A DNA stretch of 64,000 bases from NCBI GenBank assembly GCA_015064025.1, contig SVSZ01000001.1, forward strand, positions 1,705 to 65,704, given 5' to 3'. Every line of letters starts with the position of its first letter. The first letter of the stretch is position 1. The notes beneath the pieces are model-generated. The model saw only the letters and a list, made by a program, of their open reading frames with translations, was not told the DNA's origin and did not search any database. The translations under genes were made by a program, and so were the position numbers. Below, piece by piece: positions 2,154 to 31,010 of this stretch. This DNA is from Oscillospiraceae bacterium (GTDB lineage: Bacteria > Bacillota > Clostridia > Oscillospirales > CAG-272).

Positions 2154-2164
2154 GTGTCTTCTCC

Positions 2165-2662: not shown

Positions 2663-2861
2663 GCGTTTCTCCTTTTCTGCTTTGGTTTCATGAAAAGTAT
2701 ACCACTTTTTTTGCATTTTGTCAATTTTTACGCATCAAAAGCAAAAATAAGTGATGAAATACAAGAATTTGCAAAAAAGACTTGAAAAAAGACAAAACTT
2801 CATATATAATGATAAGTGGCACTTTGATTTCGTGCCTGTCTCAAAAAAGGAGGACGTTCCG

Positions 2862-3107
2862 ATGAGTTCCGAAAATCAAACCGCGATCCAAAAGGAAAAC
2901 GCGGACGCGAAAAAGATCCTGCGTGAGGTCTATGATATTTTAAGTGAAAAGGGCTACAATCCAATCACGCAGATCGTGGGATATTTGCTTTCCGAGGACC
3001 CGACCTATATCACCAACTGTAACAATGCGCGCGCGCTGATCCGTCGTGTTGACCGCGACGTTCTGATGTGCGAGCTGGTGAAGAGCTATCTGTCTCTGGA
3101 TGAATAA
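2862..3107 (+). CDS. ireB: IreB-family regulatory phosphoprotein (UPF0297)
   Basis: [38 protein letters not shown] is the family signature. AAGGAGG RBS before ATG 2862. Confidence 0.85.
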
Positions 3108-4038
3108 AACGATGCCCGGGACCGAAATCATTTCCCTTCAAGAATCCCATATCTTCAAAATGCCCGAGGCAACCGTGCTTTGCCTCGGCAATTTTGACGG
3201 CGTTCACGTGGCGCACCGCACGCTTTTGAGAAAAGCCAAACAGATCAGAGACACGCGTTTTCCGCACGCAGCATGCGGTGTACTTTGCTTTCACGGACTT
3301 TCCTCCGATTTTTTGCAAGGTACCCCTGTCCCCCATCTCTCCGATGAAGGCGCACGACTTGACGCATTTCGGGAGGAGGGGATGGATTTTGCGGTGCTTT
3401 GTGACTTCCCCACCGTCCAACACATGAGTGCGGAGCAATTCATCGACCGCATTCTGCTTGACGAATGCCATTGCGTTGCCACAGTCTGCGGCTTCAATTA
3501 CCGCTTCGGGGAATACGGAGCGGGCACTCCCGAAACGCTTGAAGCGCATTTTGGCAACGCCGCACATACAGAGCCCGCGTTTATGCTTGACGGCGCGCCC
3601 GTCAGCTCCACGCGCATCCGCACGTGTCTGCTTGAGGGTGACGCAAAAACAGCCGCCACACTTCTCTCTCACCCTTACCGTTTCGTCTCCCCCGTGCTCC
3701 ACGGCAAAAAGCTCGGACGCACCATCGGGATCCCCACGGTCAATCAAGTCATCCCCCGCAGTCTCCTCGTACCTCGCCACGGCGTCTATATTACCGATTG
3801 CAAAATCGGAGATCGAGTCCTTCGCGGTGTCACGAACGTAGGCGTGCACCCGACGGTGGATGAAAACGCCCCCGTCAATTGCGAGACCTATCTTCTTGAT
3901 TTTCACGAAGAAATATACGGTGAGGAGATCGAGCTCTCCTTTTTGCGCTATCTGCGTCCCGAGGAGAAATTTTCTACGCTTGAGGCGCTTCGGTCACGCA
4001 TTGCGCTTGATATTGAGGAAGCGCGAAATTACAAATAA
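3100..4038 (+). CDS. ribF: Bifunctional riboflavin kinase / FAD synthetase
   Basis: 312 aa. [14 protein letters not shown] nucleotidyltransferase motif, and a C-terminal riboflavin kinase region GIPTVN...HGVY...G..NVG. Confidence 0.9.
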
Positions 4039-8400: not shown

Positions 8401-10899
8401 CCCTGCTCTGGAGTTCAGCGTACTCTTCAGTGCCTCGTTCGTTACCTCGCTTTGAGGATAGGAGCCAAAGTATACGGTCCCACCGTCACGTGTAAATAAC
8501 GGCGGTTCTTCCTTTCCGCAAACTGTGCAACAGCCATCCTCATAAGCATGCGACGTGGTGGCATCGCACTCGTCACAATCATGATCTCTATCTGCATCTG
8601 TGCAGGCTGTGAGATGTTTTTTGCAGTAATCACAGAGGTGATCGCCGTCTCCCGTCGCATCGGAATGCGAACCAACGTCTCCCCCGCACTCGTCACAGTC
8701 GTGATCCCTGTTTGCGTCCGTGCAAGCAGTGAGCGTTTCTCTGCAGTAATCGCAGAGGTGGTCACCGTCGCCTGCGCTATCGGCATGAACGCCAATGGTG
8801 GCTTCGCACTCGTCACACTCATGATCCTTGCCTACGTCAACGCAATCACTTGCGTTTTCTCCGCAGTATTCGCAAAGATGATCTCCGTCGCCCTCTGCAT
8901 CCGAATGCGCACCGACAGGCTCTCCGCATTCATCGCAAACGTGATCCGTGCCCGGATCTGTACAAGACGTGAGCGTTGCTCTGCAGTAATCACAAAGGTG
9001 GTCACCGTCGCCTGTGCTATCGTCATGATCACCAACGGTTCCTTCGCACTCGTCACAAACATGATCCTTGCCTATGTCAACGCAATCACTTGCGTTTTCT
9101 CCGCAGTATTCGCAAAGATGATCTCCGTCGCCCACTGCATCCGAATGCGAACCGACGTTCGCATTGCAATCGTCACAGTGGTGGTCCGTGTCTTCGTCTT
9201 CACAACCCGTAAGGGTTTCTCCGCAGTGATCGCATACGTGATCACCGTCGCCCGCTGTATCGGTGTGACTTCCAAAGCTCTCACCGCACTCGTCACAGGA
9301 GTGGTCCGTGTCTGCGTCTGTGCAAGCTGTGAGCGGTTCTCTGCAGTAATCGCAGAGGTGGTCTCCGTCGCCTGCGCTATCTTCATGCACACCCACGGGC
9401 TCTTCGCACTCATCACACTCATGATCCTTGCCTACGTCAACGCAATCACTTGCGTTTTCTCCGCAGTATTCGCAAAGATGATCTCCGTCATTTGCACGGT
9501 CTGAATGTATTCCGACGTTTTCACCGCACTCATCGCAGTCGTGATCCGTGTTTGCGTCTGTGCAAACGGTAAGGGTTTTTCTGCAGTAATCGCAGAGGTG
9601 GTCACCGTCGCCCACCGCATCCGTATGATCTCCCATCTCAGCGCCGCAATCGTCGCAGTCGTGGTCCTCGTCTTCGTCTTCACAAACAGTGAGGGTTTCT
9701 CCGCAGTGATCGCATACGTGGTCACCGTCACCCGCAGCATCGGTGTGACTTCCAAAGCTCACACCGCACTCGTCGCAGGAGTGGTCCCTGTTTGCGTCCG
9801 CACAAGCAGTGAGCGTTTCTCTGCAGTAATCGCAAAGGTGGTCGCCGTCGCCCACAGTATCGGCATGAACGCCAACGTTTCCTTCGCACTCATCACACGT
9901 GTGATCTTGATTCACATCCGTACAAGCAGTTGCACTTTCATTGCAATATTCGCAAAGATGATCTCCGTCATTTGCAAGGTCTGCATGTATTCCGACGTTT
10001 GCACCGCACTCGTCGCAGTCGTGATCCCTGTCTGTGTCTGCGCAAACAGTGAGTGTTTCTCCGCAGTGATCACAAACGTGGTCACCGTCGCCCGCAGCAT
10101 CGGTATGCCTTCCGACCAACACACCGCACTCATCGCAACCATGGTTTCGATCCGCATCAACACATCTTGTCAAGGGCTCTCTGCAATAATCGCAGACGTG
10201 GTCACCGTCCCCCACAGTATCTGCATGAACACCAACGTTCGCACCGCATTCATCACAGTCATGATCTGTATTCCCGTCAATACAACCGTTCACGTTTTCT
10301 CCGCAATATTCGCAAAGATGATCCCCGTCGCCCGTTGCATCCTCATGCACGCCGACGCTCGCACCGCACTCATCGCAGCCATGGTTTCGATCCGCATCAA
10401 CACAGCTTGTCAAGGGCTCTCTGCAATAATCACAGTCGTGATCGCCGTCATTCGCAATATCCGTATGATCTCCTACGTTCCCATTGCAAGCATCACAGGC
10501 ATGATCGTTATTCGCATCGGTATGAATACAGGCATATTCACACTTCAAGCAAACACCGTTCACCCACTCGTGCGGCTCCTCCGCTACGGCAATGGTGTCA
10601 CAGCAAGTATACGTCTTCTTATGTACGGTTTCATTTTTTGTCCAAACAGCCTCATTTGCATGGTTGTTGGCGTTAAAATCCCCGTAAGCCTCTCCGCATG
10701 CGGTGCAAACGGCATGGTCGTTACAGGTTGCGGTGCCTCCCGCATGAGAGCAGGATGCTCCGCTGTCTCCACTGTCATCGCCTTGCGAATTCTGCTCGCC
10801 GCGATCTCCCGTATGATCGTGTGAAGGTTCCTGTGTGCAGGACGAAAAGACACCGACCAACATCAAAAGAGCCAACACAAGTGCTAAAAACCGTTTCAA
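5485..10899 (-). CDS. Giant lipoprotein: Asp/His/Cys-rich 40-aa tandem repeats plus three DUF6273-like modules
   Basis: The ORF is open to 10917. The likely start is TTG 10899, 8 nt after GGAGG, giving MKRFLALVLALLMLVGVFSSC (lipobox). There are 16 copies of the unit GDGDHxC[DE][YH]Cx5CxDx3DHxCD[ED]Cx5HxD. Three modules follow, each with FG[ST]YPQS, YRGVYF, VYWFKYEPI, WLRSP and GVVP[AV]L. Confidence 0.9.
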   Translation of the reverse strand: MKRFLALVLALLMLVGVFSSCTQEPSHDHTGDRGEQNSQGDDSGDSGASCSHAGGTATCNDHAVCTACGEAYGDFNANNHANEAVWTKNETVHKKTYTCCDTIAVAEEPHEWVNGVCLKCEYACIHTDANNDHACDACNGNVGDHTDIANDGDHDCDYCREPLTSCVDADRNHGCDECGASVGVHEDATGDGDHLCEYCGENVNGCIDGNTDHDCDECGANVGVHADTVGDGDHVCDYCREPLTRCVDADRNHGCDECGVLVGRHTDAAGDGDHVCDHCGETLTVCADTDRDHDCDECGANVGIHADLANDGDHLCEYCNESATACTDVNQDHTCDECEGNVGVHADTVGDGDHLCDYCRETLTACADANRDHSCDECGVSFGSHTDAAGDGDHVCDHCGETLTVCEDEDEDHDCDDCGAEMGDHTDAVGDGDHLCDYCRKTLTVCTDANTDHDCDECGENVGIHSDRANDGDHLCEYCGENASDCVDVGKDHECDECEEPVGVHEDSAGDGDHLCDYCREPLTACTDADTDHSCDECGESFGSHTDTAGDGDHVCDHCGETLTGCEDEDTDHHCDDCNANVGSHSDAVGDGDHLCEYCGENASDCVDIGKDHVCDECEGTVGDHDDSTGDGDHLCDYCRATLTSCTDPGTDHVCDECGEPVGAHSDAEGDGDHLCEYCGENASDCVDVGKDHECDECEATIGVHADSAGDGDHLCDYCRETLTACTDANRDHDCDECGGDVGSHSDATGDGDHLCDYCKKHLTACTDADRDHDCDECDATTSHAYEDGCCTVCGKEEPPLFTRDGGTVYFGSYPQSEVTNEALKSTLNSRAGKLPTVYTPQKWTSYNYYIGGNVSHTMWYIDVEDGGEKYRGVYFTYYRPYNPSQSSSTAYTYQDDNGYSTRTVYWFKYEPIAWTILSEDTAGGTAMIVCDAVMDSQVYYITNSGTRLLNGETVYPNNYAHSAVRAWLNESFIGTAFDEAQASHILTTTVDNSAASTGTATNSYACEDTHDKIFLLSYKEANGSAVAQGKAATDYAKAQGVHVNTSDGNVWWFLRSPGNSEAGFVRNIEPNGTVSSASLNAGLGVVPALQIRLCNCTDADHDHACDVCGTVITECVDANKDHICEECEEFTRHTYENGYCTLCSVKRPYDRNGNKITFGSYPQSEVTDDALKSTLNSKAGTLPTESNSQAWTSYGYYINSNVSNFMWYIDVEEGGEKYRGVYFSSYRPWYTVAASSESTTYQYENGYFTSTVYWFKYEPISWKIVSEDTFEGTAMILCDMIIDSQEYYLTDSGTRTVGGKTVDPNNYAYSTIRTWLNETFMETAFNELQASLILVTTVDNSVASTGYSANSHACENTEDRIFLISALEAADIAYNLSRKATDYAQAQGTMCVNGYGQWWLRSPYNTNGTNVRNVATNGYVNKTGNVYLTAIGVVPALRIKLCDCADNDKNHICDYCGDKISECADLDSDGTCDVCGTSLSVANDVHEHDYVEGICTVCGLKRDGNTVYFGTYPQSKVTDRDLIRSLTTKAGTLPSSSNSRAWTSYGYYLNGSVSNFMWYIDVSEGGERYRGVYFTSARNLTQTENGYSKSTVYWFKYEPIAWTILSEDTANGTALVICDMIIDAQAYQNVSSSVGNESYNSSNGVPSNTYASNYAYSTIRKWLNETFMNTAFDSLQQKVILTTLVDNSITSTGSISNSYVCEATEDKIFLLSHQDVIYGDYGFSSDASGTDAARMKKSTDYAQSQGAYTSKLTGKTGNGVWWLRSPMEDSSQMVTVVGNNGATSREVITSDKPGVVPVLRLVI
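8520..10540 (-). repeat. In-frame 120-bp tandem repeat array (16 units) inside the giant lipoprotein gene
   Basis: The 60-nt blocks starting at 8821, 9061 and 9421 are identical except for one C/T. Their spacing is a multiple of 120 bp. Confidence 0.9.
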
Positions 10900-10983
10900 A
10901 TCAAATTCCTCCATCACACTAAAAATTCAAATGAGATATCCGAGGGAATGATATCAAATACGCGGGGATTCCGCGTATTCGTT

Positions 10984-15455: not shown

Positions 15456-17411
15456 TCAATGCAAGATAAGGATCACGGGGTAAAGGTGCTCGCAGACAAG
15501 ATCCATTGTGTATGCGCCGAACTCCCCTTCTTCAAATTTGACAGACTCAAGCGTGCCGTCGGGACAGAGACGCTCGACACTTGAAAGCTTTTTCTTTGAT
15601 ATGAGCACGGGCTGCTCGATGGGATCGCAGGAAAGATTGAAGACAGCACAGAACATGCCTCCGTCCTCCATATCCGCCGCGCGGAAATAGACCTCTTCAT
15701 CCCCGGGATAATACAGCGGCAATTCTCCCGCCACGTCAAGGATGCGGATCAATTGCTGTTTTCTCGAAAAGTTGAGAAAGGAAAACGCCTCTTGAATATT
15801 GAACGCCACCTTCGGTGAGCCCGCAAAAGTGAAGATCTTACCGCCAAGCGCATTGTCGAATACAAGAGAACCCGGGAACAGGCGTTCAAAGTTGACCTTG
15901 TCCACCGAATTCGTCACCGTTGAAAGCTCGCGCACAGAATCAAAGAGAGGGACAAGCTCGCGCACTCTTTGCTGTACTGTGCATTTATTTCCGTTCCCCC
16001 CAAGAAGCTCGTGCGTGGGAGTTTTCCCCGTCCACGCGCGAACACGCACGCCGATATGCTTCTCAAATCCGCGTTCGGCAAGATGCGCGGCGGCATCCGA
16101 TGCCAGCATCATGTTGCCGCGAAGCATTTCAAGGATCTCCTCATCCGAAAAAGCGGTATCACGCGTTCCCTCAAGACAAGCAACGCCGCCCGACTGCGTC
16201 GAAAAATACATGGGAAGCCCCAATCTTTCAAGAAGACATTTGCTCCAGTGATCGACGCCGTCGGAAGACTCCACCCAAGCGTCTCCCAGGGGAAACCTCG
16301 GCGTTGCACTGACAGGAATACGGAAGCCACGGTGCCTGAGTGTCGGAGCAAGCTCGGAAAGTGTCTGATAAAAGCCACGGTGCTTTCCGAGAATACGGCG
16401 GTACGCCTTGCCGCTTTCGGGCTCGTAAGCCGCCAAGCGTGTGATCCAGTGCTTAGCCCCCGTCGCACCTTCGATGATCGATCCCGTAAAATGTGTATGC
16501 AAAGAGCGCGCACCCGTGCTGTAGCGATTTTGCGGGCAGGTGTCGGTTTCGGCAAGCACCACGTCTGCCTTGCCCTCAAGCTTTGCGATGGAAGCTGCAC
16601 ATTTCAAAAAGCTGTGGCTGAAATACTTGGCACCCATAGGGGTATAGTTGGCGTTATTGATACGAAGCACCACGGGATTTCCTTCTCCCGCCATGATCTT
16701 GGCAATCTCCACACCAAATTCCACGCTGCTGCCGACCGTGCAATAAGAGCCGGGAATGGTGGGATCCACGCTGTCGATCGCCGCGCGCATAACACGTGCG
16801 CACTCAAGAAGAGAGTCCCTTTGCGTCTGCACAAACAGCTCCGACACCGCTCTTGCGCTCTCGGTTCGCTCGCTTACTGCGGCAAGAAGCGCTTCTCTTT
16901 CCATACGTACACCGAGGCTTCTTTCAAGCCTGTCCAGATGCAAGGGGCAGGCACATCCTCCACCCGTACGGTAAAGGAGTCTGAAATCATCATCCAGCAT
17001 AATATGCGACGGTGCATACGACGCCAATTTCTCAAACGTACGGCGGATATATTCACGAAAGCCCTCGTCCGCAGGACAGACAGTAAAGGTCTTTTCTCCG
17101 TCGACAAGCTTTACGTACTGCTGATACGGAAACAATTCCCCAAGCATCCAGCCATGCCCTATACTCGCCTGAACCAGAATTCCGTTCGGGATTCCCATTT
17201 GCGCAAGCCGCTCACGAAAAAGAGCATACTTCTCGCCAAGGATTCTTGCCTTATCTACGGGCGGATCTCCCTCGGGGACCAGCGTCATGGAAAACAGTGC
17301 ACAGGTCGCTACACCGCTCTCGTACTGCTCTTTGATATCCTCGCAGATTTCCTCCAAATGCTCCACGTCCAAAGGCATGACCGTATACAGCTGTAATTTT
17401 TGCTTTTCCAT
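15456..17411 (-). CDS. Hypothetical protein, 651 aa, unknown family
   Basis: I placed the start at ATG 17411 (MEKQKLQLYTVMPLDVEHL...) after a G-rich RBS. It has coherent composition and the same orientation as the 454-aa gene, which lies 106 nt downstream. No signal peptide. Confidence 0.6.
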   Translation of the reverse strand: MEKQKLQLYTVMPLDVEHLEEICEDIKEQYESGVATCALFSMTLVPEGDPPVDKARILGEKYALFRERLAQMGIPNGILVQASIGHGWMLGELFPYQQYVKLVDGEKTFTVCPADEGFREYIRRTFEKLASYAPSHIMLDDDFRLLYRTGGGCACPLHLDRLERSLGVRMEREALLAAVSERTESARAVSELFVQTQRDSLLECARVMRAAIDSVDPTIPGSYCTVGSSVEFGVEIAKIMAGEGNPVVLRINNANYTPMGAKYFSHSFLKCAASIAKLEGKADVVLAETDTCPQNRYSTGARSLHTHFTGSIIEGATGAKHWITRLAAYEPESGKAYRRILGKHRGFYQTLSELAPTLRHRGFRIPVSATPRFPLGDAWVESSDGVDHWSKCLLERLGLPMYFSTQSGGVACLEGTRDTAFSDEEILEMLRGNMMLASDAAAHLAERGFEKHIGVRVRAWTGKTPTHELLGGNGNKCTVQQRVRELVPLFDSVRELSTVTNSVDKVNFERLFPGSLVFDNALGGKIFTFAGSPKVAFNIQEAFSFLNFSRKQQLIRILDVAGELPLYYPGDEEVYFRAADMEDGGMFCAVFNLSCDPIEQPVLISKKKLSSVERLCPDGTLESVKFEEGEFGAYTMDLVCEHLYPVILILH

Positions 17412-17518
17412 GCACAAACCCCCGTGAATAGAATACACTTTGGTTACATTATAGCGTACCGTCAGTAAAAAATCAAGGGATTTTCTTCGAATTTTTTTCG
17501 TCAATCCGGCGCCCCTTC

Positions 17519-17547
17519 TTGACAAACAGAGCCTTTTGCGGTATAAT
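17519..17547 (+). promoter_or_regulatory. rnpB promoter
   Basis: Perfect TTGACA (17519-17524), 17 nt, TATAAT (17542-17547). Confidence 0.85.
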
Positions 17548-17550
17548 AAG

Positions 17551-17905
17551 GCGTAGCTTCGTTAAACGGTCGCGCGGTATGTTGCCGTAAGGTATTACCG
17601 TGAGGAAAGTCCGGGCTTCACAGGACAGGATAACTGATAACATCAGCCACGGGTAACCGTCGGGAAAGTGCAACAGAAATAAACCGCCGCCTATGCGGTA
17701 AGGATGGAAAGGCGAGGTAAGAGCTCACCCGTTCCTATGGTAACATAGGTCCGCTGTAAACCCTATCCGAAGCAACACCCCGTGAATTGCTCGTCCGGCA
17801 TATATTCGGGGGTGGCACGAAACCTCGGTTTCGAAGCTTCGCGGTGACGCGGAGCGAAGATTGATGACCGTTCACGACAGAACCCGGCTTACAGACGAAG
17901 CTATC
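17551..17905 (+). ncRNA. rnpB: RNase P RNA, bacterial class A
   Basis: P4 strands GAGGAAAGTCCGGGC and ACAGAACCCGGCTTA. GGTAAGAGCTCACC element. P1 pairing TAGCTTCGT / ACGAAGCTA. Ends are accurate to a few nt. Confidence 0.93.
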
Positions 17906-17947
17906 AAAAAAGCTGCCGCAAGCGAAAACCGTTTGCGGCAGCTTTTT
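17906..17947. terminator. Bidirectional terminator after rnpB
   Basis: aaaaa-AGCTGCCGCAA...TTGCGGCAGCT-ttttt. Confidence 0.85.
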
Positions 17948-17985
17948 ATCTAAAAAATGGAATAATTAAAAGCTTTCTCTAACCA

Positions 17986-18933
17986 CTATTCAAGTACAGT
18001 CTCTAAGCGGTACACCTCTAAGTACAGTTCGTGTCCGTAGTACGGTTGTATGGTTTTTTCGGCGTACAGCATAATCCCTTGCTTGGTTGCATACAAGTAA
18101 AAATCTGTATTGTCTTCTGTCTGGTCCTTGTTGTAACCGGCAATTTTTCGCCGCAAAAAATCCACGTCAATGCTTTCCAGATCCATATTGCGATTCCAAT
18201 AATGAATCCCAACAACATCACCGTTTTCTTTAAGTGAAACAATGAGGCGTTCCCCGGTATACACTTCACCAACGTAAATATCGTAACGAAGACCATATTG
18301 AAGAACACGCTCGGAAGAATCCTCGGGAACATAAAAACCGTCGTAACGCGTCCCCCCCACCATATACGTATAGCAAGAAAGGGTATACTTCTCAGGATGC
18401 CAACCGTATATATACTTCTCCATATACGTCTCCACCCATTCCACATATGCCTTAGAATCTGTCGGTGAAACGGGATTTCTTGCAATAGGATCATCTTCGC
18501 AACTTAACCGAAATGAAGTGTCATCCGGAGAAAGCCAAAGCTCTCCCCACCCGTTCTCTTGCTCATAGAAATCCCATGAATAATCGTAAGACGGATACTC
18601 TTTCGTTCTTTTGTATTCAAACCGATAGCTCTTTGAGCCAAAAATGAAGTTTACAGATTTGTCCATTCCTTCTTTCGTCTTTATTACACTATCGGGTCCT
18701 TGAGGCATCAAACGCCAAACGTTGCCTCGGACAAATTTGCATGGTTCCACAGGAGAGGAGGGTGGTTGGGATGGATCGACCGTCACGGTAAGGTCTTCAT
18801 TCATACTCGGATCGTTACCTTGCGTTTCGAGCAATGTGTCCGAGCTTCGGATTTCATTTTCGCAGGAAAGTATCGAAGCAGACAAGGCAAGCAAAAGAAG
18901 CAGACACAACATTCGCAAAAGCTTATTTTTCAC
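17986..18933 (-). CDS. Lipoprotein of unknown function
   Basis: Likely GTG start 18933, 5 nt after GGAGGG, giving VKNKLLRMLCLLLLLALSASILSC (lipobox). No motif I recognise. The ORF extends to 18954. Confidence 0.7.
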   Translation of the reverse strand: MKNKLLRMLCLLLLLALSASILSCENEIRSSDTLLETQGNDPSMNEDLTVTVDPSQPPSSPVEPCKFVRGNVWRLMPQGPDSVIKTKEGMDKSVNFIFGSKSYRFEYKRTKEYPSYDYSWDFYEQENGWGELWLSPDDTSFRLSCEDDPIARNPVSPTDSKAYVEWVETYMEKYIYGWHPEKYTLSCYTYMVGGTRYDGFYVPEDSSERVLQYGLRYDIYVGEVYTGERLIVSLKENGDVVGIHYWNRNMDLESIDVDFLRRKIAGYNKDQTEDNTDFYLYATKQGIMLYAEKTIQPYYGHELYLEVYRLETVLE

Positions 18934-18950
18934 ACTGCACCCTCCGTTTC

Positions 18951-21900
18951 TCAATTAAACGTTGCATTGACATTTCCGGCAATATAAGGATCTATGGTTG
19001 TATTATTCTCACCATAAACCTCATTCATTTTAAGATCAACCGCTTCACACGCTTCCTTTACTGTCTTTCCTGCTTCTAATTCCGCGAAGAAATATTCACA
19101 CCAATCATTCATTTGATTTGAAAGCACACTCAACTCAAACCCTATAACTACTTTCGCCCCCTTAGCATGCGTTGCGTTTACGAGATTATTGGAATCCTCC
19201 CTGCCCTCACCGGTCGAACACGCACCGTAAATAATCAAATCTATATTGGACAGGGCATCGTTCGGCAAACTTTGAAGCATAGATATATTTATTGGTTCAT
19301 TGGATGTTTCAATCCCGGTTTGAAAACCGTGTGTTCTGACAACAACAATTTCCGATTTTGTCATGTGATTGAGCAAGAAATTTTCATTCATACAAGTTTG
19401 TTTTGCATAAATATCCGTATATCCCATAGCTTCAAGATTTCCTATAACGGATGAATAAAACTTTGTACGATTATAAGCTTCGGGAATTGATATGATAGAA
19501 ACCTCATGATCAATTTCAATCAACCATTCATCAAGCGTATTACTATCCTGTGGATCCGCTAATTGCACCAAATCCACTCCACTTGAGGTGCTATTATACG
19601 GTAACGAAAGCGCCATTCCGCTTGCTTCCGAGCATTTTGGAACAAAGCGATAATTTCCACCATCTGTAATTTGCAGCTTCCACCTTCCGGCGTCACTAAC
19701 AGTGGACATTTGTACAATGGAAGCTCCGCTTGCAGTAGATCCGTTGGCAACGGAAACATATTTTGATGAATACAAAGATTTAATTGTATAATATCCGAGA
19801 CCAACATGATTAAAAACCCACTTTGCTTGAGGGCTCGTATGATATGCCCACTGTTGAATCCGCGCCGAATCCGCAGTTGACGGTCCCTCCACATCCATGT
19901 ATCTTTGAGAAGAAATATTTTGTACATGATACGTTCCGCTCGGTATGACTTGACCTACCATAATAGAAAATTTGTATTGATAATCGTTGTCGCCACTATC
20001 AGTAACAATAATATTGGTATACCCGTGCCCAACGCCTGTGATGCGACCGCTTGCATCAACTGTTGCAACATCGGTATTCTCGCTTTTCCAATGATGGGAG
20101 CTATTTGTTTTCCATGTCGCGTTGCTAGGTTGTACGGAAAGAGTAGGTGTATGAGAAGCACCTACAGCCATCCACGTCAACGTATCCGAGGCGGCTCTTG
20201 AAGTAGATTGCACCTCGATGATATTGTTTGCAAGTTTAGTCAGATACCATACGGTTTGGTTATAGCTTGATGAACTTGAGCTTTGTGCAGACATCATTCC
20301 CAATTCAAGTGCACTATCATTTTGAAGGTATGTAAGCACTTTGCTGTTGGCTTTGTTTTTTAAAATTGCGCCTCCGCCGGTTGCATAAGAAATCTGCCAA
20401 TGAAAGCCCGTATTCGCCTTATCATATCTTTTCAACTTCGAATCCTTATAAACGGCATATGTTGTCTTCCAATATGGGCGTATTACATAGCCAAGGGTAT
20501 CACGATATTCTATAATCCAACAACCACTTTCGTTCACTGACGATTGAAAGGTTGTTTCTGGTTCCGTTAACGAATCTCTTTTTTGAAGTTTCGAAATGTA
20601 AGTCCCCAAAACCTTGTTGCGTATTGTGTAATGTCCTCCAATATCACTTGTGACAATTTCAAGATATACGTTGCTATTCCCGGTGGCTTCCGTTGAATAA
20701 ATCGCACCTTCGTCTATCAAGTCCTCCGTTTGGCTCAATGCAAAACCATTTCTGGGGTTATTTTCTGCATTTGAAGTCGCGCCTGTATTGTACTTGGCCC
20801 ACCCGCGAACAATGTCGGTAACATCCATACTAAATGTATCACCGTATGTTACAACAACATTCGATGACACTCCGTCTGTGGTTGAGGCACCAGAAAACAA
20901 AGTGGAATTATTCACTGCAATTTGGGATTCATAATTTTGAGAAGATTGTACCATGGGATGTATATTCATTTGGGAGCGAATCTGTGCAACAGGAGTAAAA
21001 GAGACAGTCGCTCTTCCAATTTGATAGGGATTTAGGCTTTTAAACTGTCCTTGTGTCCCATAGAAATCGTAAAACTTATAAATAACCTTTCCTTGCCCCT
21101 CGGATAGGTTATGTTGTGACGAGTTAGATAATGCATAATTGTACAAAGAGCTGTTATTATAAAGTCCAATATCAATAATTGCATCGTATTCCGTATAAAC
21201 AGGTTCGCTTCCTTCATAAGTAACGTAAGAATTTTTCTCATTCACTATCACTGTCGGATCCACAAAAACAGGATATACAGTGTCCGCTGCTTTTAAAAAT
21301 GCCGCAGGAACGGTAATTAACATGGTATAACCGCCAGTGGCATTTTCCGTTATATCCAAATCACCGTATGCTGTTTTTCCGTTACTATCTTCGATGAGTA
21401 TTTTTTCAAAGTCGAACAGAAAATTTCCCTCCTCATCCAAAAGCCGCCATTCACCTTGTTCGGTTTTTATTGGAGCCAATCCAGAGGTTGTCAAAAGAAA
21501 TCTGAAGGAATATTTTCCGATATTTGACATTAAAACAATATCTTCTTTTATTCCTGAAAGTTGCGTTTGATATCTCAAAGCCGTGTTTGCACCAAATACT
21601 CCATTATAAACTATACTCTTTCCATCCGCACCAAGCTTCACAGGAGAAACAATGAGCGAGTTTTCCGGTTTCATGGACATAGAGTGATTTTCAAACGATA
21701 TCATAATACCGTTGGAAGCATTATTTCCAAAATATGCACTAAAACTATTTTCGGTCATTGCGTACGAATATCCTGCAAGTCCTGTTTCGGAAATACTCGT
21801 GTTCTTATCTCTGATTTCTCCATCAGATGTTATGTATTTTACAGGCTTATCGTATACGTATGAGGTTTTTGAACCATTTTGATTTTGATAAATTACAGTT

Positions 21901-21986
21901 TGTAAACTCTTCTCTTGCGCAAATAAACGATTAACGTGTCCCTTTTCAATTGTCTGTTCCAAGCTTACAGTTTCAGGTCTTGACAC
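18951..21986 (-). CDS. DNRLRE / ricin lectin / Big_2 / ricin lectin / CHAT-like (caspase-fold) protein; body of an interrupted gene
   Basis: YPVFVDPT; MDVTDIVRGWAKYNTG (DNRLRE-type); VATVDASGRITGVGHGYTNIIVT (Big_2); IQQWAY, GRWKL, DEWLI (ricin QxW-type). The C-terminus has IVVVRTHG ... LIIYGACSTGEG ... AKGAKVVIGF. Confidence 0.7.
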   Translation of the reverse strand: MSRPETVSLEQTIEKGHVNRLFAQEKSLQTVIYQNQNGSKTSYVYDKPVKYITSDGEIRDKNTSISETGLAGYSYAMTENSFSAYFGNNASNGIMISFENHSMSMKPENSLIVSPVKLGADGKSIVYNGVFGANTALRYQTQLSGIKEDIVLMSNIGKYSFRFLLTTSGLAPIKTEQGEWRLLDEEGNFLFDFEKILIEDSNGKTAYGDLDITENATGGYTMLITVPAAFLKAADTVYPVFVDPTVIVNEKNSYVTYEGSEPVYTEYDAIIDIGLYNNSSLYNYALSNSSQHNLSEGQGKVIYKFYDFYGTQGQFKSLNPYQIGRATVSFTPVAQIRSQMNIHPMVQSSQNYESQIAVNNSTLFSGASTTDGVSSNVVVTYGDTFSMDVTDIVRGWAKYNTGATSNAENNPRNGFALSQTEDLIDEGAIYSTEATGNSNVYLEIVTSDIGGHYTIRNKVLGTYISKLQKRDSLTEPETTFQSSVNESGCWIIEYRDTLGYVIRPYWKTTYAVYKDSKLKRYDKANTGFHWQISYATGGGAILKNKANSKVLTYLQNDSALELGMMSAQSSSSSSYNQTVWYLTKLANNIIEVQSTSRAASDTLTWMAVGASHTPTLSVQPSNATWKTNSSHHWKSENTDVATVDASGRITGVGHGYTNIIVTDSGDNDYQYKFSIMVGQVIPSGTYHVQNISSQRYMDVEGPSTADSARIQQWAYHTSPQAKWVFNHVGLGYYTIKSLYSSKYVSVANGSTASGASIVQMSTVSDAGRWKLQITDGGNYRFVPKCSEASGMALSLPYNSTSSGVDLVQLADPQDSNTLDEWLIEIDHEVSIISIPEAYNRTKFYSSVIGNLEAMGYTDIYAKQTCMNENFLLNHMTKSEIVVVRTHGFQTGIETSNEPINISMLQSLPNDALSNIDLIIYGACSTGEGREDSNNLVNATHAKGAKVVIGFELSVLSNQMNDWCEYFFAELEAGKTVKEACEAVDLKMNEVYGENNTTIDPYIAGNVNATFN

Positions 21987-21989
21987 ATC

Positions 21990-22238
21990 TTACGGTTCAA
22001 GAGACTGCAATTGTGAAAGAGGGAGTTCTCCTTCTCCAAGAGTAAAAAGTAGATTTTCATCAACCAAAGAAACTGAATTTGTAGCAGTATTTGCATCTAT
22101 CACTACTGTTGTCGAATCATTTAAAGTCTGGTCGGCAGCTACAACTGAAAGCGATGCAGAAAGGATCAATAACGTAACGCAAAGAAATGCAGATACAATT
22201 CTAAGCCACTTCATTTTCAATGTATACGATTTTTTCAT
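21990..22238 (-). CDS. Signal-peptide fragment in frame with the downstream 1,011-codon ORF
   Basis: AAGGAG RBS. MKKSYTLKMKWLRIVSAFLCVTLLILSASLSVVAADQ... It ends at TAA 21992-21990, and the same frame continues. Confidence 0.7.
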   Translation of the reverse strand: MKKSYTLKMKWLRIVSAFLCVTLLILSASLSVVAADQTLNDSTTVVIDANTATNSVSLVDENLLFTLGEGELPLSQLQSLEP

Positions 22239-22288
22239 AGCAATATGTCTCCTTTTCAAAAATGTTTTTTCGGTTCCAAAAAACACTT

Positions 22289-22348
22289 TTGGCGCATAGG
22301 CAACCGGAACCGCACATACGCAAATTAATTTAAGCCTATGCGCGCCAA
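22289..22348 (-). promoter_or_regulatory. Terminator-like / attenuator hairpin in the 5' leader of the cassette
   Basis: Arms 22348-22334 and 22301-22289 give 14-15 bp with a 2-nt bulge and a 32-nt loop. TGTTTTTTGG follows on the minus strand. Confidence 0.6.
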
Positions 22349-22407
22349 AGCAGCAAGAGCATACGGGGGCATATGCAGAACAACGTTATTACACAACATT
22401 TTTTCAT
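22336..22407 (-). CDS. 23-codon Cys-rich mini-ORF (candidate leader peptide)
   Basis: AGGAGG, 8 nt, then ATG. The peptide is MKKCCVITLFCICPRMLLLLWRA. The TAG stop lies inside the 5' arm of the hairpin. Too short for the ORF track. Confidence 0.5.
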   Translation of the reverse strand: MKKCCVITLFCICPRMLLLLWRA

Positions 22408-22483
22408 AACAAATACCTCCTCTTATCGTATTTTTGAAAATCACGAGCAGATTTTATTCACTATGCGCATGATTTTCACCATT

Positions 22484-22537
22484 ATTATATCAAAAATTGG
22501 TCACTTTGTCAAGGCTGTGTTTTGGTCAACTTGTCAA
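22484..22537 (-). promoter_or_regulatory. Consensus promoter with two 16-nt direct repeats
   Basis: On the minus strand: TTGACA (22512-22507), 17 nt, TATAAT (22489-22484). The repeats are TTGACAAGTTGACCAA (22537-22522) and TTGACAAAGTGACCAA (22512-22497). Confidence 0.75.
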
Positions 22538-22551
22538 CTTATCAGTAGTCA

Positions 22552-22591
22552 AGAAAAAAGAGGACAGAGAACATCACATCATTCTCTGTCC
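22552..22591 (-). terminator. Intrinsic terminator downstream of the LRR gene (inside the insertion)
   Basis: GGACAGAGAA / TTCTCTGTCC stem, then TCTTTTTTCTT on the minus strand. Confidence 0.8.
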
Positions 22592-22662
22592 CATTTAGCC
22601 GGTAGAAATTACGTTTTAAAGGCTGTCCTCTGCAAAAATCTTTGATGCAGCTTTTTGTTATT

Positions 22663-24075
22663 TTATTTTACTTCAAGAGCACTTTCAACACTTTCATTTC
22701 CCTTTTCAAAGGTAACGGAGCCCGCGGCGCTGACCGTTTCGACGGAGGTGCAACCGCGGAACGCCTCAGCCTCCACCGTCCGCACACCGCCGAGATCGAT
22801 CTCGGAAAGGGCGGAGCACCCCGAAAACGCGGATGCGGGAAGCACGGAAAGGCTTTGGGGCAGAACGACCCTTTCAAGTGAATCACAATTCATAAAGGCA
22901 TTGATTCCCATGGAAGAAAGACCTTTTCCGAAATCCACGGACACAAGCCCGTCACAGGCGAGAAAGGCGTTCTCACGTAAGGTCTTCAGCGAATTGGGAA
23001 GGACGACGGTGTAGAGCGCGTCACAGCCATAAAAGGCGCGGATACCGATCTCTGTAAGTCCCTCGGGAAGCACGACCTCACGCAGGCTCTTGCACTCGTA
23101 AAACGCATTGGTACCAAGTGTGCGGCATACGGGAAGCAACGTCACGCGCGAGAGAGAGAAAGGATAGTAACCTTCGGAAAAATCTGCGTATCTTGCACCG
23201 AATACGTACCCAAGATAGGTATTTTCCGTTTTCGTTCCGCCGACAAAGGGCAGGGTCATCTCCCGCAGGGCAATGCTCCCCTCAAGAGCGGCGAATTCGA
23301 TCTTTTCAAGCGCGTCACCAAAGGAAATTTTGGTGAGAGAGGTACAGTAGGACAAGGCATGCTCACCGACGAAGGTAAGCCCCTCCAGCCCTTCGATCAC
23401 CTCGAGAGACGCGCATTTTGTGATGGAAAACTTCTCAAGCCTTTCAAGGGACGAAGGCAGTGAAAGCGTGACCAGATCGTTACAGTCGTAAAGCGCGTAT
23501 GCGGGTAGGACGGTCATGTCTCCCGTCAAACGAAGATGCGCAAGACTTGCGGGAATGTCCAGCGGATTGTCTTCAAATCTCTCGGCGCCGAACAGCGTTC
23601 CGAGGAAGCAGTCCCCCTCCCCGTTCTTCCCCATCACGGGCGTTTCCAAGGCAAGAAGGCTCTTGCATCCCGCAAGGATCTCCTTCCCAACGCTTGTAAC
23701 GCTTTCGGGAATCACCAGCGCCTGAAGCGCCGTAAGATCACGAAAGGCACCGTCTCCGATCGCGACCACGGGCAAGCCCTCAATGCTTTTCGGAATCGAG
23801 ATCACCGTTGCGTCACCCGTATATCCCGTTACGGTGACCCCCTTTGCGTTCTTCGTGTAGGTCAGCGCCTCCGTCTCTGTGCTCTGTGTATCCAGAAGCG
23901 CCGATATCTCCTCGGTATAATCGGGCAAGCTCACAGGCTCCTCCGGGGTCGTATCGATCGGTGCGTCGCTCGTCGGCGTTTCGGGCTCGGCAGTCGGCAC
24001 CGCCGTACAGGAAACAAGCATGAGGAGGCACAGGAGCGTGCTGACGATATATATAAGAATACTCTTTCGATGCAT
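22663..24075 (-). CDS. BspA-type leucine-rich-repeat lipoprotein
   Basis: Start ATG 24075 gives MHRKSILIYIVSTLLCLLMLVSC (lipobox). Repeated I/VPxSVxxIGxxAFxxCxxL units follow. The ORF extends to 24390. Confidence 0.85.
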   Translation of the reverse strand: MHRKSILIYIVSTLLCLLMLVSCTAVPTAEPETPTSDAPIDTTPEEPVSLPDYTEEISALLDTQSTETEALTYTKNAKGVTVTGYTGDATVISIPKSIEGLPVVAIGDGAFRDLTALQALVIPESVTSVGKEILAGCKSLLALETPVMGKNGEGDCFLGTLFGAERFEDNPLDIPASLAHLRLTGDMTVLPAYALYDCNDLVTLSLPSSLERLEKFSITKCASLEVIEGLEGLTFVGEHALSYCTSLTKISFGDALEKIEFAALEGSIALREMTLPFVGGTKTENTYLGYVFGARYADFSEGYYPFSLSRVTLLPVCRTLGTNAFYECKSLREVVLPEGLTEIGIRAFYGCDALYTVVLPNSLKTLRENAFLACDGLVSVDFGKGLSSMGINAFMNCDSLERVVLPQSLSVLPASAFSGCSALSEIDLGGVRTVEAEAFRGCTSVETVSAAGSVTFEKGNESVESALEVK

Positions 24076-24250
24076 AACGTATTCCCTTTCTTCATATAGT
24101 TTACGGTTTATTGTACCATAAAAAGGCGCGCTGTGCAAGAGGAGTTTGCGATAATTTGCAATTATTTCAAATCCTTCACGCTTTCTTCTTGTAAAGTACG
24201 CAAAAACGTGGTACAATATTGTAAATACAGCAAACAGGGAGGAGGATCTT

Positions 24251-25216
24251 ATGCAAATCATTGCAGAGGGCGCGCTTGTCGGAATGTGCGTTCGTGACGT
24301 ATTGAAAAAACACCTCTCCCTTTCCACAAAAATGATGAAATACCTCAAATATGAAAACAACGGGATCGAGGTCAACGGAAAGCACTGCACGGTACGTTAT
24401 GTTCTTTGCAAGGGCGACGTGCTCACGGTCAGTACACAGGATCGGGAATCCTCCCCTGCGGTGGAGGCTGTTGATCTTCCCCTGGATATCCTCTATGAGG
24501 ATGACGAGCTTGTCGTTCCCGCCAAGGGAGCAAATATGCCGACGCATCCCTCGCATGACCATCACAGCGACACCGTAGCAAACGCGCTTGCTTACCGTTA
24601 TCTCAAAAGCGGAACGCCCTTCGTTTTCCGTCCCATCAACCGCCTTGACCGTAACACAAGCGGACTTTTGCTTATCGCGCGGAATAAGCGTACGGCGGCA
24701 CTGCTCACGCGTCAGCTGCAATCGGGCAACATTCGAAAGACCTATCTTGCTGTGCTTGACGGTGAAATGGAAACGGAGGGAGGCATCATTGATGCATGTC
24801 TTCACCGCACGCCCGAGAGCATCATCGTCCGCGAGGTCTGCCCACCCGACGCGCCCGACGCAGCCCCCGCAAGAACCGAATACACGGTGCTTTCCACGGG
24901 AAACGGGCATACGCTGGTGCTCGCTCATCCCATCACGGGGCGCACCCATCAGCTCCGCGTACATTTTTCGCACCTGGGCTATCCCATCACGGGAGACAAC
25001 CTTTACGGGACCCCCTCCCACCACATCGGGCGGCATGCGCTCCACGCATATGCCCTTTCCTTTTCACATCCGATCAGCGCATCTCCCATGCAGCTTTGCG
25101 CGCCGTTACCGCAGGATATGCAGGATTTGATCGCTCTTTTCTTCCCGAACTCACTCATGGAGGTATTGAATGAACACAGCCGAGAAAAGGAAGCACCGTC
25201 TTCCTCTCTTTTGTAA
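24251..25216 (+). CDS. RluA-family pseudouridine synthase with S4-like N-terminus
   Basis: HPSHDH..., NRLDRNTSGLLLIARN, GRTHQLRVH. Confidence 0.9.
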   Translation: MQIIAEGALVGMCVRDVLKKHLSLSTKMMKYLKYENNGIEVNGKHCTVRYVLCKGDVLTVSTQDRESSPAVEAVDLPLDILYEDDELVVPAKGANMPTHPSHDHHSDTVANALAYRYLKSGTPFVFRPINRLDRNTSGLLLIARNKRTAALLTRQLQSGNIRKTYLAVLDGEMETEGGIIDACLHRTPESIIVREVCPPDAPDAAPARTEYTVLSTGNGHTLVLAHPITGRTHQLRVHFSHLGYPITGDNLYGTPSHHIGRHALHAYALSFSHPISASPMQLCAPLPQDMQDLIALFFPNSLMEVLNEHSREKEAPSSSLL

Positions 25217-28941: not shown

Positions 28942-30405
28942 TTATTTTAATCTTGGGAATTCCCCTTCAATCAAACACCAAATGTCGGTATCCCATTCCA
29001 TTCGATTTGAATAGAAATCAATTTTTTTAAAATCATCAATATGGGCAGGTGTACCGTTTTTAACAATCTCATTTCCCACAACAACTTGGGTATTTGAATA
29101 ATAACATGAAACAACTTCATTCTGAGACGGTATTATCGAACCGGCTTCACCTTCTTGTAAAATAACATCACCGACGGTCCAACAATGACTAATATTATTA
29201 TATCCTGTTCCAAAAAGCCCACCGGAACCAAGCAACCCTCCTGCATATCCGGAACTACTGCATATCTCAATATCACCGGTTGTATAACAATTTTTCACAG
29301 CAGAAGCAGAAATTCCAATCAGCCCGCCCGCTGTAATCGTACCCGTCCCATTTTGCGAATTGCTTATTTTTACTTCTGAATAGCAATTTTGAACTGTTGT
29401 TAAATTTCCGGAAGACTCTCCTATAAGACCTCCGATTCGAGCAGAAAAAGCCTTAGGTTGTTTTGATGGCACCACTGACGATACTGAAAAATCTATTATA
29501 CCTTGAGAATAACTAGTCTCGATAGGTTTATTTCCTGTATAGTACCCTGCCAAACCACCTAACCATTGACTCGAACCGCCGTTTTCGTGCGTAGCATCAT
29601 AATATGCATTAATAGATACATCAGACGAGCAATGCGCTATCCCGCCCGTACTTCCGGCGACTCCGCCAATGAAAAATTCTTTTCCAAAGGACAAATTTAT
29701 TTTCCCTTCCACAGAACAATTTTCAATACCGCCTGTATTTTCAGCTACAAGCCCCCCTACATAAACAGTTCCGTATTCGGTTGAATCTATATCAATAAGG
29801 AGACCGGTGATATTTAGATTTTCTATTTTCCCTTCTGCATAGCCAAAAAGCCCCGCCCATGATACGTCATATTCTCGTATCTGATTCTTTTCTTTTTTTA
29901 GCGATTTTTCAGTCAGCAGAACGTTTGAAACGGTATAACCATTTCCATCAAACCATCCGGAAAATACCGTTCTGGGTGTAGCACCAATGGGAGTGATCGA
30001 ACGATTATTCATATCAATATGATTTGCCAGTGAAATTTTTACACCCGCAAGATCAGAACCGCCATTCACTATATCGATCAATCCCGCGAATTGTTCCGCC
30101 GTAGAAATAACGAAATCCAATTCTATGACACTATACCATGATGTATCGCTCTCACCACTCCACAATGAACAATTACAGATTGAGCAAATATTATCGACAT
30201 AATTATGTGTAGAACAAAACTGCTCATGACCATTCAAATCATTGCTCATATCTAAATTTGAGATTTCCTCATTGGCATCTTTATTCGAATCGCTCTCTTC
30301 GGTTATAATACTATTTTTATGATTCAAAGCGTTTGACGTGCTATCGCATGCAATCATGGAAAATAACAAAAGTACTGTAAAAGCAAGTGCAAAAATCTTT
30401 TTCAT
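28942..30405 (-). CDS. GLUG-motif repeat lipoprotein
   Basis: GGAGG RBS. MKKIFALAFTVLLLFSMIAC (lipobox). Repeats GGLVAENTGGIENC, GGVAGSTGGIAHC, GGLIGESSG..VQNCY, GGLIGISASAVKNCY and GGLLGSGG. Low-GC region. Confidence 0.8.
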   Translation of the reverse strand: MKKIFALAFTVLLLFSMIACDSTSNALNHKNSIITEESDSNKDANEEISNLDMSNDLNGHEQFCSTHNYVDNICSICNCSLWSGESDTSWYSVIELDFVISTAEQFAGLIDIVNGGSDLAGVKISLANHIDMNNRSITPIGATPRTVFSGWFDGNGYTVSNVLLTEKSLKKEKNQIREYDVSWAGLFGYAEGKIENLNITGLLIDIDSTEYGTVYVGGLVAENTGGIENCSVEGKINLSFGKEFFIGGVAGSTGGIAHCSSDVSINAYYDATHENGGSSQWLGGLAGYYTGNKPIETSYSQGIIDFSVSSVVPSKQPKAFSARIGGLIGESSGNLTTVQNCYSEVKISNSQNGTGTITAGGLIGISASAVKNCYTTGDIEICSSSGYAGGLLGSGGLFGTGYNNISHCWTVGDVILQEGEAGSIIPSQNEVVSCYYSNTQVVVGNEIVKNGTPAHIDDFKKIDFYSNRMEWDTDIWCLIEGEFPRLK

Positions 30406-30484
30406 TTTTTCCTCCAAAAAATAACCATTAATAAAAGCACAACCAAATCATAAAATCACAATTCAAAATGTCTGTGCTTTTAAT

Positions 30485-30513
30485 ATTTTAACCTATTTCG
30501 GGTTAAATGTCAA
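30485..30513 (-). promoter_or_regulatory. Promoter of the GLUG lipoprotein gene
   Basis: On the minus strand: TTGACA (30513-30508), 17 nt, TAAAAT (30490-30485). Confidence 0.6.
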
Positions 30514-30521
30514 TAACCTAA

Positions 30522-30557
30522 AACAGATTATTCTATAATATTTAAAAATAATCTGTT
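30522..30557. promoter_or_regulatory. Operator-like inverted repeat around the XRE gene -10 box
   Basis: AACAGATTATT (30522-30532) and AATAATCTGTT (30547-30557) form a perfect 11-bp inverted repeat. The 14-bp spacer contains TATAAT (30534-30539). Confidence 0.6.
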
Positions 30558-30567
30558 GGAGCTAAAA

Positions 30568-30780
30568 ATGAAATATTCAAGAATTCGTGATCTAAGAGAA
30601 GATAGAGATATCAACCAAACTCAAATTGCCAAAATGTTGGGGATGTCACAAACCGGATATTCGAAATATGAAACGGGCGAAAACGACATCCCAACTTCGA
30701 TTTTGATAAAGCTCGCAAGATTTTACAACACAAGCATTGATTATTTATTGGGAGAAACAAACGATCCAAAAAGGCATTAA
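30568..30780 (+). CDS. Small XRE-family HTH regulator
   Basis: MKYSRIRDLREDRDINQTQIAKMLGMSQTGYSKYETGENDIP. GGAG lies 7 nt before ATG 30568. Confidence 0.85.
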   Translation: MKYSRIRDLREDRDINQTQIAKMLGMSQTGYSKYETGENDIPTSILIKLARFYNTSIDYLLGETNDPKRH

Positions 30781-30839
30781 CAAAAAAGTATCCCGAACAC
30801 AAAAAACAAGCTCGGAATTCTAAAAAAGTCTTGACTTCA

Positions 30840-30881
30840 GCGCAAAGCACATATTTTCAAGCGCCAAGCACATATTTTCAA
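30840..30881 (+). repeat. 2 x 21-bp tandem direct repeat upstream of the tRNA promoter
   Basis: GCGCAAAGCACATATTTTCAA followed by GCGCCAAGCACATATTTTCAA (one mismatch). Confidence 0.9.
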
Positions 30882-30888
30882 AATATAC

Positions 30889-30918
30889 TTGACAAACAAT
30901 TGCGTTCGATGTTATAAT
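30889..30918 (+). promoter_or_regulatory. tRNA-Ala promoter
   Basis: TTGACA (30889-30894), 18 nt, TATAAT (30913-30918). Confidence 0.75.
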
Positions 30919-30934
30919 AGTAGCGTTCAAGCAT

Positions 30935-31010
30935 GGGCTTGTAGCTCAGTTGGGAGAGCGCTGCGTTCGCAACGCAGAGGTCATGGGTTCGAATCCCACC
31001 AGGTCCACCA
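30935..31010 (+). tRNA. tRNA-Ala (anticodon CGC), CCA encoded
   Basis: I folded the cloverleaf by hand. Acceptor stem GGGCTTG/CAGGTCC carries the G3:U70 alanine identity pair. Anticodon loop is TTCGCAA. T-arm is ATGGG-TTCGAAT-CCCAC. Confidence 0.93.

Follow-up and report, generated by a model that had tools for sequence, protein, structure and literature searches.

A lineage-specific accessory operon in a replaceable slot between rnpB and a leucine-rich repeat lipoprotein gene of an Oscillospiraceae bacterium

Introduction

MIC231 and other transposase-less mobile insertion cassettes (MICs) are mobilised in trans by IS4/IS231-type transposases with duplications of 10–12 bp, and tRNA and tmRNA genes are known sites of island integration. 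Here we analysed 64,000 nucleotides from an Oscillospiraceae bacterium (contig SVSZ01000001.1 of assembly GCA_015064025.1; this whole stretch is called the window, and position 1 is its first letter), in which a preliminary description made from the sequence alone had reported a 4.7-kb low-G+C insertion between two copies of a 10-bp direct repeat, placed exactly at the terminator of the RNase P RNA gene rnpB. The tract carries a small operon, hereafter the cassette, with a large gene and a lipoprotein gene, and it is followed by a leucine-rich repeat (LRR) lipoprotein gene. Our preferred reading, which we consider moderately probable, is that of an accessory operon, specific to this lineage, that occupies a gene-turnover slot and was imported by recombination through the conserved flanks.

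Two other systems provide the closest parallels to such a reading. In E. coli, integration hotspots hold unrelated gene sets between the same conserved neighbours in related genomes, with no integrase and no dependence on tRNA genes, and homologous recombination in the flanks has been proposed for their spread (Touchon et al. 2009, PMC2617782). [quoted passage not shown] The locus in the window shares with the E. coli hotspots the differing contents between two conserved neighbours and the absence of an integrase, whereas the comparison here spans three to four lineages of uncultured Clostridia species or genera and not a strain population, one flank is an RNA gene, rnpB, and the breakpoint is placed by codon usage alone. 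It may be likened to the T6SS modules by gene layout, with a large secreted protein and a small, seemingly cognate one, a candidate crossover in conserved upstream sequence and no mobility genes, but the window shows neither a secretion-system context nor orphan partner genes. Like the MIC231-type cassettes, the tract has passenger genes without a transposase and a 10-bp direct repeat at its ends, but it lacks the terminal inverted repeats that define those cassettes as well as further copies of its ends.

Results

Related genomes carry different genes between rnpB and the LRR gene

The interval is bounded by the following features:

17554–17907, + strand: rnpB, RNase P RNA of class A (Rfam RF00010; score 231.7 bits, gathering threshold 100; full model covered, positions 1–367).
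17907–17947, no strand assigned: predicted bidirectional intrinsic terminator hairpin (18-bp stem, −30.6 kcal/mol, z −6.5, an A6 run before it and a T5 run after it).
22663–24075, − strand: BspA-type LRR lipoprotein gene, the right conserved flank (Pfam LRR_5, 2.3e-65; syntenic in L003, L004, L005 and L031).

The locus was compared with those of three species-level relatives, L003, L004 and L005, and with L031, where the L003 arrangement recurs. The closest other organisms are uncultured Clostridia/Oscillospiraceae from the gut of ruminants, whose proteins encoded by the rnpB-adjacent gene do not exceed 69% identity. The gene order DUF3810-RluA-LRR-X-rnpB-P651-P454, in which X stands for the variable content, is kept at all four loci with flank proteins 47–83% identical, and rnpB, the left conserved flank, is mostly identical in L003–L005. 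X is a MATE transporter gene of host-like G+C in L003 and L031 and a gene for a 182-aa membrane protein with lower G+C in L004 and L005; the cassette is absent from the slot in all four, and no remnant of the MATE or 182-aa gene was found within the window. Because the flanks are conserved while the contents differ and no remnants are left, the interval is a replaceable slot and the cassette is lineage-specific, with the same flanks around different contents among relatives that characterise a hotspot.

The preliminary description had proposed a comparison with relatives for empty sites. The relatives do lack the cassette, but none has an empty junction: the slot is filled with other genes, and the LRR gene adjoins rnpB directly in none of L003, L004, L005 and L031. 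A search for an empty-site allele gave relatives with at most 69% protein identity in a genome collection and four distant loci in a metagenome scan, and a protein search with the rnpB-adjacent gene returned nothing closer than the 69%-identity relatives. Look-ups of exact proteins led to the source contig and one further contig, 100% identical to it. The same-species sequences that were found are 100% identical to the window, and no alternative allele was present among the searched collections. They comprise a 7,845-bp contig (L043) of a second metagenome (JGI 3300032167), which matches window positions 16990–24834 and whose assembly is independent of the window DNA's own metagenome (JGI 3300031555), and the large protein annotated as P0001 in a metagenome-assembled genome at NCBI.

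On the left side of the slot, homology with the relatives stops at the rnpB 3' end, at ~17904, and the hairpins at the rnpB-terminator position differ in each relative and are unrelated to that of the window, so the rnpB hairpin may or may not have arrived with the cassette. As judged from its arms and flanking runs, the hairpin can stop transcription both ways, of rnpB on the + strand and of the cassette operon on the − strand. Long runs of rnpB are identical to those of the relatives, despite the 47–83% identity of the flank proteins, and because these runs extend across lineages rnpB would be a good anchor for recombination.

The base composition is foreign and changes inside the LRR gene

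The drop in G+C between the two repeat copies, first noticed from counts of single lines, was borne out by computation over the whole window, in which 17948–22656 has a G+C of 0.400 and the rest 0.513. G+C at third codon positions (GC3) is 0.34 in the large gene and 0.45 in the lipoprotein gene, against 0.59–0.63 in neighbouring genes. A windowed profile of composition and k-mers, also proposed beforehand, placed the tract, with its low G+C, within the top 10% of the tetranucleotide outliers of the window, the others being located at 7.5–11 kb and 28.5–31.5 kb. The composition of the tract is foreign to the host genome and its codon usage is strongly atypical.

The right compositional edge lies beyond the repeat, within the LRR gene:

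22666–22716, − strand: tail of the LRR gene rich in A or T at third codon positions (AT3-rich), the probable right edge of the imported DNA (GC3 counts).

None of the LRR gene's final 12 codons ends in G or C, and only two of its final 17 do, against 15 of the preceding 17 and a GC3 of 0.64 in the remainder of the gene (binomial P 1e-5 for the tail versus the rest of the gene). The change-point falls at ~22701–22716, about 45–60 nt beyond the right repeat. The tail encodes an orthologous C-terminus (VTFEKGNESVESALEVK, compared with VTFGEGNDRVKNILELE in L004), for which the orthologues use 9–13 G/C-ending codons out of 17, and an AT3-rich tail occurs in one of the 35 other host-like genes of the window. 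Low GC3 carries on beyond the right repeat into a tail that is itself orthologous, which is most simply explained if the import took in the 3' end of an LRR homologue, so that the right junction would have formed by homologous recombination. A GC3 switch of this kind illustrates how a putative recombination breakpoint can be placed from a single sequence when close relatives are lacking.

The sole other host-like open reading frame (ORF) with an AT3-rich 3' tail is located at 2207–2785 (+ strand), with one G/C-ending codon among its last 17, in a region (2000–3500) with a G+C of 0.46. Its tail may mark another recombination boundary.

The operon encodes a nonsense-interrupted multi-lectin protein and a lipoprotein

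The operon has the following features, in the order of the − strand:

22551–22592, − strand: terminator-like hairpin and T-run after the LRR gene (sequence and fold prediction).
22484–22512, − strand: cassette promoter, TTGACA-17-TATAAT with a TG extension (extended −10), a 12/12 consensus match.
22336–22407, − strand: leader small ORF of 23 codons, MKKCCVITLFCICPRMLLLLWRA, with an AGGAGG ribosome-binding site ahead, as read from the sequence.
22245–22345, − strand: two hairpins of the leader, lying between small ORF and large gene (−34.3 kcal/mol, z −3.0).
18951–22238, − strand: large gene, ~1095 codons, nonsense-interrupted (Pfam domains, colinear homologues, structure models).
21990–21992, − strand: in-frame TAA where homologues carry Leu or Glu, dividing an 82-aa signal-peptide piece from 1011 aa.
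18954–19541, − strand: C-terminal clan-CD (CHAT/gingipain-like) cysteine-peptidase-like domain, ~190 aa (Pfam CHAT, fold match).
17986–18933, − strand: lipoprotein gene, 315 aa (GTG start after GGAGG; signal peptide MKNKLLRMLCLLLLLALSASILSC).

Thus the order on this strand is the LRR terminator, the promoter, a leader of ~240 nt, the large gene and the lipoprotein gene, with the rnpB hairpin as the terminating element. The insert had been said to bring its own terminator and promoter, and both were found, as a terminator-like hairpin (22592–22561) and a promoter that matches the consensus throughout. In the relatives no terminator follows the LRR gene, the next gene beginning 27–40 nt on. The rnpB promoter (17518–17549) and the cassette promoter (22482–22513) are both perfect TTGACA-17-TATAAT sequences and, in inverted orientation to each other, share 75% identity across 32 nt (CTTGACAAA...TATAATAA).

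In the leader, the 5' arm of the first hairpin covers the stop of the small ORF (GCA TAG), and the second, AU-rich hairpin lies ahead of the ribosome-binding site of the large gene. A similar architecture was found at L036, which carries a 42%-identical homologue of the large protein: in its leader (2650–2850) a 23-aa small ORF at a like position ends with GCA TAG within the 5' arm of a long hairpin (z −4.3). No Rfam match was obtained for 22245–22407. The leader may be an attenuator.

Three co-oriented genes had been counted in the insert; there are two, since the in-frame TAA splits one of them. The 98-aa and 1011-aa ORFs have homologues of 1090–1130 aa that are colinear across the stop, and the ~1095 undisrupted codons agree with this length, indicating that the two ORFs are a single gene. 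At the stop the translation reads ...LQSLEP-stop-DVSRPETVSLEQ, compared with LQTLSP-L-DVALPETI and LKKLKP-E-NVQRPESI in homologues. The TAA is the same in the two independent metagenome assemblies, the window contig and L043; this agreement rules out an assembly error and leaves either a real nonsense allele or a recoding site. Any product translated from beyond the stop would be without a signal peptide. A nonsense codon after the signal peptide suggests that the cargo is probably being lost.

The large protein is composed of a signal peptide, an N-terminal all-beta region, a beta-trefoil, a Big_2 domain, a Ricin-B trefoil and a C-terminal caspase-fold domain, with Pfam matches to RicinB_lectin_2 (4.9e-28), Big_2 (4e-8) and CHAT. 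The N-terminal 570 aa were modelled as all-beta with a pLDDT (predicted local distance difference test) of 87.5, including a beta-trefoil at residues ~450–570; a fold search with this part returned beta-sandwich and beta-trefoil pieces and no enzyme match. Residues 4–256 are similar to DNRLRE-domain proteins from Bacillus plasmids.

The CHAT-like domain scored 27.9 bits when scanned alone, above the Pfam cut-off of 24, and its model has a pLDDT of 90.7. His71, Gly72 and Cys108 of the domain are invariant among 15 homologues. Foldseek matched the model to SAVED-CHAT (8tl0, E 1e-9) and to gingipain R (TM 0.76–0.77), and its matches, among them 8tl0, 8eey, 1cvr and 4ief, cover SAVED-CHAT, Csx29, gingipains, separase and caspases. 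With a modelled caspase-like fold and a conserved His/Cys dyad, the domain is predicted to be a member of clan CD, its peptidase activity being putative. It has in common with the clan CD peptidases, such as the CHAT proteases and gingipains, the caspase fold, the invariant His-Gly...Cys dyad and a passing Pfam CHAT score, but it is short (~190 aa), forms the C-terminal end of a secreted protein rich in lectin domains and belongs to an interrupted gene; unlike CHAT proteases, it has no SAVED, TPR or CRISPR partner.

The 315-aa lipoprotein has no match in Pfam, NCBIfam, PDB, PADLOC or PHROG, and a word-based homologue search returned the query alone. Its start codon, read from the sequence, agrees with a 315-aa gene call (P0200). 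It is weakly similar (E 3e-8) to lipoproteins encoded downstream of homologous large genes.

The gene pair recurs at other chromosomal loci

Homologues of the large protein, at most 42% identical over the full length, invariably have a co-oriented lipoprotein gene (310–430 aa) downstream, and these lipoproteins are linked by weak mutual similarity. The gene pair was found in five other kinds of neighbourhood in other Clostridia, among them upstream of alaS, after a spoVAC-like gene and beside a sigF-type operon. DNA matches between the cassette and the other loci are confined to the coding region of the large gene, whose G+C is below that of the flanks in every genome examined (0.40–0.48 versus 0.43–0.58). 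From the varied sites, the G+C below the flanks and the leader shared with L036, the pair of large gene and lipoprotein gene appears to be a transferable accessory module. In two different genomes the module is located directly downstream of a spoVAC/spoVAEB-like gene (L044, 7157–12719; L045, 7232–12626), which suggests that this site is a second recurrent location of it.

The search for the cassette elsewhere, which the preliminary description had directed at plasmids and phages, thus found the module at other chromosomal sites, while plasmids, phages and viral contigs were negative. Plasmid and phage DNA searches with the cassette gave no match, nor did the viral contigs, and plasmid and phage protein searches gave single-domain matches alone, to the DNRLRE-type N-terminus and the Ig (immunoglobulin-like) domains. 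None of the defence-system models matched the cassette, and PHROG matches were confined to the Ig domain. The earlier statement that the insert has no integrase or transposase was upheld by domain scans, in which no such domain was detected in the tract and no recombinase appeared in the Pfam gene lists of the ~30 kb around it.

As an insertion, the tract is minor, being one more case of accessory-gene turnover in a slot, with rnpB as one neighbour. The cargo is more interesting than the insertion itself: in gut and rumen Clostridia the gene pair forms a recurring, uncharacterised module that joins a multi-lectin caspase-fold protein, a lipoprotein and a small-ORF leader, and this module might act on host or microbial glycoproteins.

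The 10-bp repeat and the origin of the tract

The repeat occupies the following positions:

17938–17947, + strand: left copy of GCAGCTTTTT, formed by the right arm of the rnpB hairpin and the T-run (exact search).
22647–22656, + strand: right copy of GCAGCTTTTT (exact search; 18/23 identity when extended against 17925–17947).

The 10-mer is exact at both boundaries, as had been reported. A third copy, on the − strand at 17907–17916, is the opposite arm of the rnpB hairpin. The repeat sits in the terminator, past the end of the Rfam rnpB match at 17907. We also considered the right 10-mer as part of a terminator, and this was ruled out (−3.9 kcal/mol, z −0.14). After the stem-like GCAGC of the right 10-mer, the window carries the 13-mer TTTTTGTTATTTT (22652–22664), which also follows the rnpB terminator stem in L004 (6024–6036) and L005 (6341–6353), where the T-run and the converging gene's stop fall within it.

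In the reading that we favour, import through the conserved flanks, the right crossover would have taken place within the final ~50 nt of the LRR gene, with a second one probably in or beside rnpB; the donor would likely be a lower-G+C relative with the same neighbourhood, and the cassette itself would have performed no cut-and-paste. That the cassette was horizontally acquired, as proposed from the start, is supported by its absence from the syntenic relatives, its atypical codon usage and the occurrence of the module in unrelated contexts elsewhere. Several points weigh against this reading. The LRR-tail signal comprises 12–17 codons and one other gene of the window has a similar tail, no donor has been recognised, the large protein's closest homologue being 42% identical, and no same-species genome with another allele was found, the direction of change and the exact boundaries not being directly seen. 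In addition, the 10-mer extends to 18/23 identity, and TTTTTGTTATTTT recurs after the rnpB stem of L004 and L005, a coincidence of ~1e-3 by base rate.

These last two points would fit better with a different history, in which a transposase-less cassette, trans-mobilised or by now an enzyme-less relic, inserted precisely past the rnpB terminator and duplicated the 10 bp, the rnpB hairpin having been beforehand the shared terminator of rnpB and the LRR gene. We regard this as unlikely. The empty site that it implies, rebuilt from the window, is the hairpin followed by TTTTTGTTATTTT, exactly as after the rnpB hairpin of L004 and L005, and in the relatives the single hairpin adjoining rnpB ends both converging transcription units. 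However, the LRR gene adjoins rnpB in no relative, low GC3 runs past the right repeat into the LRR gene, and TTTTTGTTATTTT reads Lys-TAA-C-A5 and recurs at other gene-end/terminator junctions, so its match by convergence is plausible. As for the 10-mer itself, dinucleotide shuffles share a word of at least 10 bases in 2.3% of cases when the boundary zones are tight, which speaks for a real duplication, but in 4.2% and 8.4% with zones of ±100 and ±150 nt; a shared 10-mer or longer word was also found in 12 of 97 real intergenic pairs from the window, and the boundaries were picked from the repeat itself. Within the window there are 1407 direct 10-mer pairs at a spacing of 1–10 kb, and imperfect pairs as long as the 18/23 extension exist elsewhere in the region. 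The word is uncommon, with five independent matches in 599 kb of related DNA, which favours the insertion and removes the concern, raised in the preliminary description, that it is a common word or part of a widespread terminator. Terminal inverted repeats, which a transposon or MIC would have inside the direct repeats, are absent: no inverted pair links 17948–17990 and 22600–22646, and by eye 8 of 20 terminal bases match. There is no transposase in cis, and a search for a second copy of the ends was negative in the window, among the related loci (599 kb) and in the collections of plasmids and phages. Nor do the other copies of the module have a common flanking repeat, an unrelated 10-mer (L036) and a 9-mer (L038) being all that was found. 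The match is within chance for AT-rich intergenic DNA, and with 2–12% of comparable pairs matching, the scar resembling a target-site duplication is not supported beyond chance; the duplication reading is weak, and the repeat is better taken as a chance resemblance of AT-rich, terminator-type sequences. Because the 10-mer is not clearly better than chance, the tract is probably an ordinary genomic islet, a well-known kind of feature, and not a new mobile element. The LRR-tail and 13-mer signals could nevertheless both hold if the insertion had first taken place in a lower-G+C donor with the same neighbourhood and the segment from the LRR tail to rnpB was then moved by flank recombination. Far less probable is a bolder version, in which the 10-bp repeat is a real duplication left by an unrecognised trans-mobilised cassette that targets the distal edge of intrinsic terminator hairpins; if this were true, its own terminator and promoter would spare the flanking genes and give it independence from them, and the match of the rebuilt empty site to the L004 and L005 junctions would be a footprint.

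The direct repeats bracket an island beside a structured RNA gene, an arrangement reminiscent of islands at tRNA and tmRNA genes, which raises site-specific integration by a tyrosine or serine recombinase acting in trans on an element of the cis-mobilisable type, with the 10-mer as the attL/attR core at a small-RNA gene. We give this very little credence, since neither the tract nor its surroundings contain an integrase or other recombinase gene, the core is not framed by inverted repeats for recombinase binding, and the repeat belongs to the terminator rather than to rnpB, whose 3' part it does not duplicate and at whose 3' end the homology with relatives stops. Furthermore, the module is unlinked to rnpB at all other loci, and a full-text literature search, in which the matching literature was not fully checked, gave no report of rnpB as an integration site. 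Alternatively, the operon could be ancestral here and have been replaced in the relatives, its low G+C being intrinsic to the gene family and not a mark of recent import. The lower G+C of the module in every genome examined could indeed be a family bias, and the relatives are distant enough (47–83% protein identity) that the direction of change was not seen. Yet the difference between a GC3 of 0.34 and ~0.6 is mostly synonymous, so amino-acid content does not explain it, the ranges of 0.40–0.48 for the module and 0.43–0.58 for its flanks are as expected of a shared transferable pool, the kind of locus differs in nearly every genome examined, and the GC3 shift in the LRR tail is abrupt; an ancestral operon is therefore quite improbable. 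Import of the operon by recombination through the conserved flanks remains the reading that we prefer.

Other compositionally unusual regions of the window

A second low-G+C patch (0.35–0.40) at 28942–31010 is the strongest tetranucleotide outlier of the window. It contains the gene of a 491-aa GLUG-motif protein (GC3 0.30) and that of a small HTH_3 regulator, which is located directly upstream of tRNA-Ala(CGC). The patch has the look of a further acquired islet, in this case beside a tRNA gene. At 5485–10917 on the − strand, the gene of a 1810-aa DUF6273 protein is an outlier in tetranucleotides and GC skew despite its normal G+C.

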